This document shows, one piece after another, positions 42,637-45,875 of a stretch of DNA of 54,355 nt (positions are counted from its first letter, which is position 1; the number at the start of each line of letters is the position of its first letter). The DNA lies in assembly GCA_016183435.1 (NCBI GenBank), contig JACPEQ010000011.1:1-54355 (forward strand), in the 5' to 3' direction. The notes beneath the pieces are model-generated. The model was given only the letters and a program-made list of their open reading frames with translations, ran no database searches and was not told where the DNA came from. Position numbers and translations under genes: made by a program. This DNA is from Chloroflexota bacterium (GTDB taxonomy: Bacteria > Chloroflexota > Limnocylindria > P2-11E).

Positions 42637-43107
42637 CTAGGCCGAGGCGCGGCCCCGGGCGCCGATCGCCAGCGTCGCCACCGCGAGCCGCTGGCCCCGC
42701 CGGCGGATCCGGGGTGGCATCACGATGCCGCGGCGTCGGTAGTGCGCGAAGGCGTAGCGGTCGCACTGGACCTCGGCGGCGGTGCCCCACCCGTGCACGA
42801 GGTACAGCCAGTAGTGGCAGTACTCGTGGAGGTAGAGGAACCGCATGACGTCGCGCCGGGTGCGGAGCTGCACCAGCGGCCGCCCCCAGGACCCGAGATC
42901 GACGACCTCGGCGAACGGGACGAACGGCTCCGGCACCTGGATGACCATCTCCGGCCGGTCCCAGAACGTGAACGCCTGCAGGTGCGGCCGGGTGCGGTAC
43001 CGGAGCGACTTGACGGTCAGCCGGTAGCCCGTCGCCATCGGCAGGCCGCCCAGGACGTCCCGGACCCGCCCCGCGGGGTGGCTGGGCAGCGTCGATCGGA
43101 CGGCCAT
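42637..43107 (-). CDS. Hypothetical protein with an HExxH metallopeptidase-like motif
   Basis: 156 aa with LYLHEYCHYWLYLVHGWG. An alternative start is ATG 43038. The longer track ORF upstream is Arg/Pro-rich and overlies the T-box leader. Confidence 0.5.
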   Translation of the reverse strand: MAVRSTLPSHPAGRVRDVLGGLPMATGYRLTVKSLRYRTRPHLQAFTFWDRPEMVIQVPEPFVPFAEVVDLGSWGRPLVQLRTRRDVMRFLYLHEYCHYWLYLVHGWGTAAEVQCDRYAFAHYRRRGIVMPPRIRRRGQRLAVATLAIGARGRASA

Positions 43108-43262
43108 GGGGCCGAGCGGGCGACCTGGGCCCTGGCGGGCTGGGGCGATGGCCACGGAGCCAATGTACGGACGGGGCTCGCGCGTCCGTTCCTGGTGGCT
43201 GGGGCCTCCTTCCTGGTCCGCCCCCGACCCCTGCGAAATGGCCGAAAAGGGGCTCGGACGCC

Positions 43263-43292
43263 TTGCCTGATGGGCGGGATCGGTCATACCAT
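43263..43292 (+). promoter_or_regulatory. Candidate sigma-70-type promoter for the T-box leader
   Basis: TTGCCT (43263-43268), an 18-nt spacer and TACCAT (43287-43292). This would place the transcript start at the base of Stem I. Confidence 0.3.
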
Positions 43293-43465
43293 CGCCACCA
43301 GCGTCGCTCGAGCGGGAGCGAGTAGCCCGGCGGAGGCCGTTCAGAGAACCCCGGCTGGTGCGAAGGGGGACGGCGGAGCCAGGCGAATGGGTCCCGCGAG
43401 ACGCCGCCTCGAACGCGCAAGCCAGTAGAGGCGGCCGGAAGCCCTCCGTTACCTGGGCATCCGTA

Positions 43466-43556
43466 CCCCCCGGGCGCGCGGACCGAGGCGCGAAGCGACG
43501 AGGTCGAGCACCCGGGCCAAGCGAGCGGGTCTCCCGCGAGCGAGGTCGGAACAAGG
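43466..43556 (+). repeat. Dispersed repeat family, copy E3 (inside the T-box leader)
   Basis: ccccccgggcgcgcggaccgaggcgcgaagcgacgaggtcgagcacccggg ... gcgagcgaggtcggaacaagg. It is about 80% identical to E4 by eye. Confidence 0.75.
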
Positions 43557-43598
43557 TCCTCGGCGCGAGCCGTGGACGAGTTCGGGTGGCACCACGAG

Positions 43599-43634
43599 CC
43601 CTCGTCCCGAAGGTGGGGCGAGGGTCTTTGTTTT
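43599..43634 (+). terminator. T-box attenuator (intrinsic terminator) upstream of trpE(G)
   Basis: 10-bp stem ccctcgtccc/ggggcgaggg (one G:U) with loop gaaggt, followed by tctttgtttt. It lies 19 nt before the trpE(G) ATG. Confidence 0.8.
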
Positions 43635-43652
43635 CGCGGAGGTGGTGCGCAG

Positions 43653-45875
43653 ATGGCGGTCATCGCGGAGGCAGGGCAGCGTTCGCTGCGGTACCGGACG
43701 CGCGGTGGCGTCGAGGTCCAGCGGCTGACCACGCCGCTGCCCGTCGCCGGCGCGATCGAGCCGATCGTTGACGCCCTGGACGAGCACCTGGGGGTGCTCC
43801 TGGCGTCGAGCTATGAATACCCCGGCCGCTACACGCGCTGGGATATCGGCTTCATCGACCCTCCGCTCCAGCTCGTGACGCGCGAGCGGTCCTTCGCCGT
43901 CGATGCGCTGAACGAGCGCGGACAGGTGCTCGTGCCGTCGATCGCCGAAGCCATCGCCGGCCTCGAGGCGGTCGAGGATCTCGAGGTCTCGGCGGCGCGC
44001 CTCCGCGGGCGGATCCGGGAGCCCGAGCGCCGGTTCGCCGAGGAGGAGCGCAGCAAGCAGCGGTCGGCGTTCTCGCTGGTGCGCGGCCTCGTCGACCTCT
44101 TCTGGTCGGCGGAGGATCCCCATCTCGGCCTGTATGGCGCGTTCGCCTACGACCTCGCGTTCCAGTTCGAGCCGATCCCGTACGGCCTGCCGCGGCCCGC
44201 GGACAAGCGCGATCTGGTGCTCTTCCTGGCGGACGAGCTCGTCGTCGTCGACCACACGCGCGGCGTCGCGGTACGCCATGAGTACGAGATGTCCGCCGGC
44301 GGCCGCTCGACGCGCGGACTGCCGCGGACCGGCGTGCGCGTCCCGTTCCGGACGGCCGAGTCGGTCGATCGTGCGAGCGATCTCGAGCCCCGCGAGTACG
44401 CCGTGACGGTGCGCCTCGCGCACGAGGCCTTCCGGCGTGGCGACCTCTTCGAGGTCGTGCCCGGCCGGACGTTCTTCGAGCCGTGCCGCGTCCCGCCGTC
44501 GGAGCTGTTCCGCCGCCTGCGCGAGCGGAACCCGGCGCCGTACGGGGCTCTGATGAATCTCGGCCGAGGTTGGATGGACTTGGGTGCGGGGGAGCATCTC
44601 GTGAGCGCCTCGCCGGAGATGTACGTCCGCGTGGACGGCTCGCGCGTGGAGACCTGCCCGATCTCGGGCACGATCGCCCGCGGCAGCGACGTCATGGGCG
44701 ACGCCGAGGCCATCGTCGAGCTGCTCAACTCGGAGAAGGACGAGTCGGAGCTCACGATGTGCACCGACGTCGACCGCAACGACAAGTCGCGCATCTGCGT
44801 TCCCGGCAGCGTCCGGGTCATCGGGCGGCGGCAGATCGAGATGTACTCGCGCGTCATCCACACGGTCGACCACGTCGAGGGGATCCTGCGCGAGGGCTAC
44901 GACGCGATCGACGCGTTCCTGACGCACGCGTGGGCCGTGACCGTGACCGGCGCGCCGAAGCTGTGGGCCATGCGATTCATCGAGGAGCGCGAGCGCTCGC
45001 CCCGCGGCTGGTACGGCGGCGCGATCGGGTTCGTCGGGTTCGACGGGAACATGAACACCGGGCTCACGCTGCGCACCATCCAGGTGAAGGATGGCGTCGC
45101 CAGCGTCCGCGCCGGCGCCACGCTCCTCATCGACTCCGATCCCGACGCCGAGGAGCGGGAGATCGACCTGAAGGCCGCCGCGTTCCTCGACGCGATCCGC
45201 CGGCCCCGCGGCACGACCGCCGTGCGGGCCGCCGCCGCGCATCCCGGGGCGGGACGCCGCGTGCTGCTGGTGGATCACGAGGACTCCTTCGTCCACACGC
45301 TCGCGAACTACCTGCGGCAGACGGGCACCGACGTGCTCACGGTCCGCGCGGCCACGCGCGAGCGCCTCGAGGAGGTCATCCGCTCGTACCGCCCGGACGG
45401 GATCGTCCTGTCACCGGGCCCCGGGCGGCCCTCCGACTTCGACGTCGCGGGCGCGGTCGACGCCGCCGTGAGCGCGGAGATCCCGCTCTTCGGCGTGTGC
45501 CTGGGGCTCCAGGGCATCGTGGAGCGCTTCGGCGGCGAGCTCGGTGTCCTTCCGTACCCGATGCACGGGAAGACCTCGGAGATCAGCGTGCTCGGCGGCG
45601 CGATCTTCCAAGGCCTGCCGCGCACCTTCCGCGCCGGCCGCTATCACTCGCTGTACGCGGTGCGGGAGACGCTGCCGCGGGAGCTGCGGATCACGGCCGT
45701 CGCCGACGACGGCGTGATCATGGCGATCGAGCACGAGCGCCTGCCCATCGCCGCCGTGCAGTTCCACCCGGAGTCGATCCTCACGCTCAAGGACGAGGTC
45801 GGGTCGAAGATCGTCCACAACGTCGTCGCGCGGCTGATCGGTGGAGGACCAGTGATAGGGAAGAGCGGAGATTGA
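43653..45875 (+). CDS. trpE: Fused anthranilate synthase TrpE(G) (component I plus glutamine amidotransferase)
   Basis: ATG 43653 is preceded by ggaggtgg. The TrpE blocks are SSYEYPGRYTRWDIGF and GWYGGAIGF. The C-terminal GATase has VLLVDHEDSFV, GVCLGLQ and HPES. Confidence 0.9.
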   Translation: MAVIAEAGQRSLRYRTRGGVEVQRLTTPLPVAGAIEPIVDALDEHLGVLLASSYEYPGRYTRWDIGFIDPPLQLVTRERSFAVDALNERGQVLVPSIAEAIAGLEAVEDLEVSAARLRGRIREPERRFAEEERSKQRSAFSLVRGLVDLFWSAEDPHLGLYGAFAYDLAFQFEPIPYGLPRPADKRDLVLFLADELVVVDHTRGVAVRHEYEMSAGGRSTRGLPRTGVRVPFRTAESVDRASDLEPREYAVTVRLAHEAFRRGDLFEVVPGRTFFEPCRVPPSELFRRLRERNPAPYGALMNLGRGWMDLGAGEHLVSASPEMYVRVDGSRVETCPISGTIARGSDVMGDAEAIVELLNSEKDESELTMCTDVDRNDKSRICVPGSVRVIGRRQIEMYSRVIHTVDHVEGILREGYDAIDAFLTHAWAVTVTGAPKLWAMRFIEERERSPRGWYGGAIGFVGFDGNMNTGLTLRTIQVKDGVASVRAGATLLIDSDPDAEEREIDLKAAAFLDAIRRPRGTTAVRAAAAHPGAGRRVLLVDHEDSFVHTLANYLRQTGTDVLTVRAATRERLEEVIRSYRPDGIVLSPGPGRPSDFDVAGAVDAAVSAEIPLFGVCLGLQGIVERFGGELGVLPYPMHGKTSEISVLGGAIFQGLPRTFRAGRYHSLYAVRETLPRELRITAVADDGVIMAIEHERLPIAAVQFHPESILTLKDEVGSKIVHNVVARLIGGGPVIGKSGD

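Follow-up and report, generated by a model that had tools for sequence, protein, structure and literature searches.

A tRNA-Trp T-box before trpE(G) in a Chloroflexota metagenome-assembled genome carries a dispersed repeat, probably tolerated, between its decoding module and its discriminator

The leader of the fused anthranilate synthase gene trpE(G) described here is best read as a class-I transcriptional tRNA-Trp T-box attenuator that tolerates a REP-like insert of 95 nt in the linker between its two modules. We put the probability of this reading at roughly 0.7. The leader lies in a window of 54,355 nucleotides (assembly GCA_016183435.1, contig JACPEQ010000011.1), which is contig C179 of the metagenome-assembled genome G000 (2.22 Mb, 71% GC, 90% complete). 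The closest named relatives of its TrpE(G) are uncultured Chloroflexota, and fused trpE(G) orthologues were found in eight other genomes of the family. Ten orthologous leaders were compared, that of G000 included; one of them (L009) ends at a contig end within Stem I, and the repeat was excised from the G000 and G002 leaders before alignment. A wider sample was obtained by using the T-box core, invariant in nine genome leaders, as a pattern on metagenome contigs, which gave 80 leaders, 70 of them parsed. The parts of the leader are as follows.

43263-43292, plus strand: putative promoter, inferred by inspection, with -35 TTGCCT (43263-43268), an 18-nt spacer and -10 TACCAT (43287-43292).
43301-43404, plus strand: Stem I, from the RF00230 alignment, with pair probabilities of 0.77-0.98 and compensatory changes in its middle and top helices.
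43301-43305 and 43400-43404, plus strand: base of Stem I, GCGUC with GACGC (Rfam alignment).
43306-43311 and 43398-43399, plus strand: K-turn of Stem I, GCUCGA with GA (Rfam alignment).
43312-43317 and 43392-43397, plus strand: lower helix of Stem I, GCGGGA with UCCCGC.
43321-43324 and 43385-43387, plus strand: S-turn of the specifier loop, AGUA opposite GAA.
43388-43390, plus strand: specifier UGG (Trp), with GAA before it and the purine G43391 after it.
43342-43348, plus strand: AG bulge CAGAGAA.
43353-43364, plus strand: distal loop GGCUGGUGCGAA.
43404-43434, plus strand: Stem II, CCGCCUC (43404-43410) with GAGGCGG (43428-43434) (Rfam alignment).
43411-43413 and 43424-43427, plus strand: S-turn of Stem II, GAA and AGUA.
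43436-43458, plus strand: Stem IIA (CGG with CCG), F-box and IIB (Rfam alignment).
43446-43451, plus strand: F-box CCGUUA (Rfam alignment).
43455-43458 and 43441-43444, plus strand: IIB pseudoknot, GGGC with loop GCCC.
43461-43555, plus strand: dispersed-repeat copy, delimited by nhmmer, the flanks of 74 copies and the consensus fold.
43556-43577, plus strand: Stem III, GUCCUCGGC, loop GCGA, GCCGUGGAC; 9 bp with one U-U mismatch, then GAGUU.
43584-43596, plus strand: T-box core GGGUGGCACCACG, in the second Rfam piece.
43583-43609, plus strand: antiterminator, helices A1 and A2 around a 7-nt bulge.
43583-43586 and 43606-43609, plus strand: helix A1, CGGG with CCCG.
43587-43593, plus strand: antiterminator bulge UGGCACC, whose UGGC (43587-43590) is complementary to the tRNA 3' end GCCA.
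43594-43597 and 43602-43605, plus strand: helix A2, ACGA with UCGU.
43598-43635, plus strand: intrinsic terminator, stem 43598-43625 and tail CUUUGUUUUC, pair probability 1.00.
43638-43642, plus strand: ribosome-binding site GGAGG.
43653-45875, plus strand: trpE(G), from its ATG to the end of its stop codon, with Pfam Chorismate_bind, GATase and Anth_synt_I_N.

The sequence-only reading had taken this leader for a tryptophan T-box and proposed a cmsearch with Rfam RF00230 as a check. The outcome was divided. At the gathering score (93 bits in this release) the G000 leader gave no T-box match. With permissive filters and in E-value mode on a short region it gave two sub-threshold pieces with the repeat between them. 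The first (43298-43466, 38.9 bits, whole-genome E-value 3.5e-7) covers Stem I, the specifier loop, Stem II, IIA and the F-box; the second (43581-43609, 18.4 bits) covers the T-box core and the antiterminator. The shortfall is due to base composition and to the insert, not to absent motifs. Seven leaders of repeat-free relatives gave contiguous RF00230 matches of 41-55 bits over 238-286 nt, and G002, which holds the closest complete orthologue and also bears the repeat, gave a partial match of 21.9 bits only. None of the 11 T-box leaders scored (L001, L002, L006-L013 and L027) reached 93 bits, their range being 21.9-80.6, so that standard annotation would list no T-box in genomes of this kind.

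The architecture is nevertheless shared by the relatives and supported by covariation, with the specifier in a proper loop. Their trpE(G) leaders have the same GAAUGG specifier and GGGUGGCACC core as G000. GAAUGG(A/G) is present in 9/9 leaders that reach the specifier loop (L009 stops short of it), and GGGUGGCACCACGA(G)CCCUCGUCCC is read by all ten orthologous leaders. When the canonical structure is laid on the ten-leader alignment, 97.6% of cells pair. Compensatory changes fall at 21 pairs, compared with 11.5 +/- 2.2 in shuffled alignments (0 of 500 reaching the observed count) and 3-10 when the partners are slid. The Stem I base, the lower helix, the S-turn, the specifier UGG, the AG bulge and the distal loop had all been picked out by eye, and both the sequence and the Rfam alignment put them at the positions listed above. 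The same holds for Stem II with its GAA and AGUA, previously a candidate, which is now backed by the Rfam alignment and by compensatory changes at five of the six counted pairs. The IIB loop and its downstream strand also co-vary on inspection (GUCCG/CGGAC in L013, GCCCG/CGGGC in L007).

The K-turn Stem I, specifier loop, AG bulge and distal loop can be aligned to the model consensus. The discriminator is defined as purines followed by Stem III, directly 5' of helices A1 and A2 (Li et al. 2019, reviewed in PMC7583486). In G000 this order is present as AAG(G) at 43553-43556, Stem III at 43556-43577 and then GAGUU. Stem III itself has compensatory changes at seven of nine pairs and a pair probability of 0.99 in the full G000 leader.

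Specificity for tRNA-Trp is indicated at both contacts. The specifier UGG is complementary to the CCA anticodon of the genomic tRNA-Trp, and the downstream trpE(G) fits the pathway. It had been argued that the UGGC of the core would suit a tRNA with G73, and the genomic tRNA-Trp(CCA), on contig C21, does carry discriminator base G73. Its CCA is not encoded, which would give a 3' end GCCA complementary to UGGC. Two other T-boxes of the same genome serve as internal controls. The leuS T-box combines specifier CUC and bulge UGGU, matching tRNA-Leu(GAG) with A73 by Watson-Crick pairing, and the thrS-like T-box combines specifier ACC and bulge UGGG against tRNA-Thr(GGU) with U73, a G-U wobble. Reading the trp specifier as AUG instead misfits the UGGC bulge, since all three tRNA-Met have A73. 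On this evidence we regard the G000 leader as a genuine tRNA-Trp-specific transcriptional T-box on trpE(G), as predicted from sequence. A protein-coding reading of the leader was rejected: its four overlapping ORFs have no Pfam match, and GC3 periodicity is absent over about 43180-43600 and returns at trpE(G).

The regulatory end of the leader is likewise well defined. The terminator with its U tract before trpE(G), already seen in the first reading, proved to be the sole terminator-like site in 43100-43750 (1 found, 0.1 expected). It is conserved in relatives with G-U/A-U changes and is separated from the ATG at 43653 by 17 nt. Its 5' strand overlaps the 3' strands of A1 and A2, CUCGUCCCG being common to terminator and antiterminator, and it is the default fold of the tRNA-free leader, with probability 1.00. 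The antiterminator strands first proposed, GGACGAG/CUCGUCC (43574-43580/43601-43607), did not hold up: the pairing is not conserved, L011 and L013 are unable to form it, and its 5' strand is made up of the 3' side of Stem III and the GAG that follows. As for the start of the transcript, the leaders of relatives also have TACCAT or a TAnnnT hexamer, equally far from Stem I, and a consensus scan for a sigma-70 promoter at the G000 leader gave no match.

In the T-box model, uncharged tRNA stabilises the antiterminator and allows read-through, whereas with charged tRNA the terminator forms. Following this model, uncharged tRNA-Trp would place its CCA anticodon on the UGG in the specifier loop of Stem I and its 3' GCCA on the bulge UGGC, which would stabilise the antiterminator and let the polymerase read through. 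Charged tRNA-Trp would be unable to do so, and the terminator of 10-12 bp would then form. The target of this attenuation would be trpE(G) and the genes behind it.

One long-range structure competing with these elements was considered and discarded. RNAalifold proposed a 9-bp helix that would join the 5' side of Stem I to the T-box (columns 5-13/267-275); it consists of invariant columns only and clashes with the base of Stem I. Its two strands are GUCGCUCGA (43303-43311), from the 5' side of the base and K-turn of Stem I, and UCGGGUGGC (43582-43590) of the T-box core, which are complementary with three G-U pairs.

That a copy of a dispersed repeat lies in the leader, and that the leader is long because of it, had been noticed from the start, and both points stand: nhmmer matches the copy at 43468-43551 (E 6e-15), and the leader is about 90 nt longer than those of relatives. 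A genome search with a profile of the four window copies found 99 matches in G000, 74 of them full-length. The family comprises subfamilies, and some variants exceed the usual unit length of about 95 nt. In most of the 74 listed copies the unit starts with a CGT(C/A/T)C tag before hairpin 1, and it ends in GGTCGGA followed by a position-specific AYRRG (A 63, Y 60, R 73, R 83 and G 65 of 89). The leader copy has the 5' tag CCGUAC, hairpin 1 at 43469-43516, hairpin 2 at 43517-43545, GGUCGGA at 43544-43550 and the tail ACAAG at 43551-43555. The consensus fold of 46 copies consists of two local hairpins, with compensatory changes in 12 of 22 pairs. A helix closing the 5' tag on the 3' end of the element was dismissed, being present in one minimum free energy fold, lost with one extra nucleotide and absent from the 46-copy consensus. 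The repeat occurs in 6/6 genomes of the genus. Two genomes of one other genus have a single match each, and the remaining genomes searched gave no match. At least four copies, all of the leader-copy type, are nested in the hairpin 1 apical loop of another copy (C106:10422, C112:23869, C177:6166 and C78:9510 of G000), with halves of the host flanking the inner copy. This nesting suggests that the element lands in hairpin tips.

The closest description in the literature is that of CGTC-tagged REPs, which are single palindromes of 20-40 bp (Di Nocera et al. 2013, PMC3733652). The G000 repeat resembles them in being high-copy, mostly intergenic and palindromic, with hairpins and a terminal CGT(C/A/T)C tag that is left unpaired. 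It differs in its unit of about 95 nt with two hairpins, its conserved tail, its subfamilies and longer variants, and its self-nesting. The inserted repeat is therefore REP-like, and we do not file it as a REP because the unit is too long and complex.

The site of the insert is best seen against the repeat-free leaders. In these, the F-box is followed by the IIB strand, a linker hairpin, the purines (A/U)GAGG, a Stem III of 9 bp with a GNRA-type loop, GAGUU or GAGAU, and CGGGUGGCACC. The linker hairpin has 5-6 bp (e.g., CUCCGU-GAYN-GCGGAG), three of five pairs covary, and it is present in eight of ten genome leaders and in metagenome leaders. The order in G000 is GGGC (the IIB strand), AU, the element at 43461-43555, Stem III, GAGUU and the antiterminator. 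In 10/10 orthologous leaders, G000 included, Stem III immediately precedes the antiterminator, and the purines 5' of it in G000 (AAG, then G43556) coincide with the element's own AYRRG tail. The element takes the place of the small lineage-specific linker hairpin between the IIA/B pseudoknot and Stem III. The insert is thus between the decoding module (Stem I, II and IIA/B) and the discriminator (purines, Stem III and A1/A2), and inside neither.

The linker is of narrowly conserved length in the wider sample. The F-box and the core are 54-67 nt apart in 63 of 70 metagenome leaders (mode 60), compared with 132 nt in G000 and 139 nt in G002. Four of the 70 are at 105-108 nt owing to a 45-nt apical extension of the linker hairpin like that of L012, and the remaining three are at 72, 92 and 192 nt, the last probably a mis-parse. 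The element was found in none of the 70 parsed metagenome leaders. The 45-nt extra stem on the hairpin tip marks a sub-lineage (L012, on G006:C142, with L126, L131, L137 and L175).

G002 carries a copy of another subfamily (in hairpin 2) at the same spot as in G000. Its 5' junction is 11 nt further from the F-box, with the 5' arm of the old hairpin kept. The leader L027, repeat-free and with an intact hairpin, belongs to the closest TrpE(G) relative of G000 (87% identity over the same 407 residues, against 81% for G002), and a TrpE(G) tree groups G000 with L027 at 82/84 support. Two insertion events are favoured by the different subfamilies, the 11-nt difference in 5' junctions and the grouping of G000 with L027. 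A single event is favoured by the common 3' junction C-AAGG-UCC of the G000 and G002 leaders and by an AU test that does not reject a G000+G002 clade (p = 0.22). The shared 3' junction may be the element's tail itself, and we lean slightly toward two events rather than one. Dating by copy identity was abandoned: other copies in G000 match that of the leader at 91-95% identity, and copies just as similar are present in four other species.

The T-box bearing this insert shows no sign of decay. Measured against the 114 near-invariant columns (at least 95% conserved) across 71 unique leaders, G000 deviates at four, all in the replaced hairpin, and at 0 of 110 elsewhere, which indicates that the switch is not decaying; G002 has the same four deviations and one more in the U-tract. 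Pair probabilities of Stems I, II and III and the terminator are 0.77-1.00 with the element and 0.78-1.00 without it. A pairing of GACGAGG in the element with CCUCGUC in the terminator was rejected, its probability being 0.00 when the whole leader is folded and 0.15 while the terminator is unfinished. Since the insert has its own local fold and leaves both modules as they were, the switch of G000 most likely still works with the insertion tolerated. The linker site is permissive, as seen in the 45-nt extension (L012 and four metagenome leaders), in the nested copies and in the tRNA insert of the leuS T-box described below. What counts against a tolerated insert is the narrow linker length in most metagenome leaders, together with RF00230 scores that all fall below the gathering threshold. 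Two further points on this side are the G000-specific pairing that competes with Stem III before the terminator is finished (figures below) and the fact that no helix joining the two ends of the insert is robustly predicted. The loss of the linker hairpin may carry a cost, given that the linker is tightly constrained and several near-invariant bases are gone.

A rather unlikely alternative is that the insert tunes the switch. The roughly 70 extra nucleotides and two stable hairpins would lengthen the tRNA-binding window, add a pause or alter leader stability, and the trp operon would thereby become more or less sensitive to tRNA-Trp charging. That linker structures can modulate polymerase kinetics and extend the tRNA-binding window has been discussed, and in stem Sa of staphylococcal glyS T-boxes a lineage-specific insertion changes read-through and tRNA discrimination (PMC9177973). 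The element's presence at the same place in two species also points this way. So does the tendency of other copies to lie just upstream of gene starts in sense orientation, a long high-GC3 ORF starting within 45 nt of the repeat 3' end in 29/67 copies as opposed to 16/67 in the mirrored control. On the other side, the element is present in only two of about 90 lineage leaders, close relatives are without it, and no part of it covaries with T-box parts. A more elaborate proposal, which we consider speculative and rather unlikely, is that this hairpin-seeking repeat lands preferentially on the tip of the linker hairpin and did so separately in each of two species, that survivors are those whose AYRRG tail regenerates the purines, and that the insert acts as a co-transcriptional delay retuning the response of the aromatic operon to tRNA-Trp charging.

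It is improbable that the insertion broke tRNA-dependent antitermination, leaving a relic leader that terminates constitutively or is bypassed, with the operon otherwise controlled. The case for such a loss would be the missing linker hairpin with its near-invariant bases, a linker far longer than the usual range, and an alternative pairing that rivals Stem III while the terminator is incomplete: before its 3' strand is made, the G000-specific GGACGAG/CUCGUCC reaches 0.42 and Stem III drops to 0.55. A broken switch is hard to reconcile with the other 110 near-invariant positions, of which G000 has lost none and G002 a single one, and with an intact terminator, U-tract, ribosome-binding site and trpE(G) frame. 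The Stem III differences between G000 and G002 also preserve pairs (U-A vs U-G, a U-U mismatch vs G-C, G-C vs G-U). Finally, the repeat does form a stable hairpin structure between pseudoknot and antiterminator, but the original suggestion that it sits at the position of Stem III and acts as or replaces it is very improbable, because a separate, homologous and covarying Stem III of 9 bp with a GCGA loop is intact directly after the repeat, between it and the antiterminator.

A Trp T-box before trpE in Chloroflexi is not new, having been reported in Dehalococcoides by Wels et al. 2008 (PMC2494555). Like known Trp T-boxes (RF00230), the G000 leader has Stem I with UGG, Stem II, the IIA/B pseudoknot, the F-box and Stem III, a UGGC bulge for G73, a terminator overlapping the antiterminator, and its site before trpE. 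Unlike them, its lineage is high-GC, scores below the gathering threshold and has an extra conserved hairpin between pseudoknot and Stem III, in place of which G000 and one congener have a dispersed repeat, of 95 nt in G000. Stem Sa offers a published parallel. It is 42 nt long, lies in antiterminator helix A2 (Apostolidi 2015; Stamatopoulou 2022, PMC9177973), and is conserved in all staphylococci and required for full function (PMC9177973). Both are lineage-specific structured insertions in a T-box, the tRNA response being established for stem Sa, but the G000 insert is a multi-copy, mobile-type repeat in an inter-domain linker. Literature searches for a REP, MITE or other dispersed repeat inside a T-box found no paper.

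Another parallel is found within the same genome. In the leuS T-box (Leu, CUC; C90:7134-7438, minus strand, or L001 1501-1805, minus strand; 80.6 bits), the loop of Stem III contains a complete tRNA-Ala(GGC) on the same strand, with G3:U70 and A73 (RF00005, 65.6 bits), the only tRNA-Ala(GGC) that ARAGORN finds in G000. The leuS leader has matches in 24/24 family genomes and, in a second family of the order, in one genome, and the tRNA segment is spanned in every leader-length match listed. In both leaders the insert is of the 75-95-nt class, folds on itself and lies in the gap between decoding module and antiterminator with core motifs kept. The leuS T-box has a functional gene inside the loop of Stem III, in a leader matched in every family genome, whereas the insert of the trp leader is a repeat, lies upstream of Stem III and occurs sporadically. 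By analogy, leuS shows that large self-folding inserts between decoding module and antiterminator can be compatible with long-term upkeep of a T-box in this lineage. The trp leader of G000 is thus an uncommon structural variant of ordinary mechanism, with its insert probably tolerated.

T-boxes are thought to act as molecular rulers that span the tRNA from the anticodon to the 3' end. In this regard, G000 with its 132-nt linker, its repeat-free close relative and a second species with another copy constitute a ready-made comparison, which bears on how much structured linker RNA a T-box tolerates and on the effect on switch kinetics. In addition, a dispersed repeat can split a riboswitch match into sub-threshold pieces, and standard annotation misses the T-boxes of this lineage.

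Two minor observations concern other loci. The third T-box of G000 (C85:2798-2992, plus strand, or L002 1501-1695; 51.8 bits) precedes the thrS-like gene (tRNA_SAD and class II core). All tRNA-Thr of G000 have U73, so its UGGG contact would be a G-U wobble. In the window, a minus-strand reading frame without Pfam match (42637-43130, GC3 about 0.98) runs divergently from the trp leader; it probably begins at about 43100-43150 rather than at the listed 43554.
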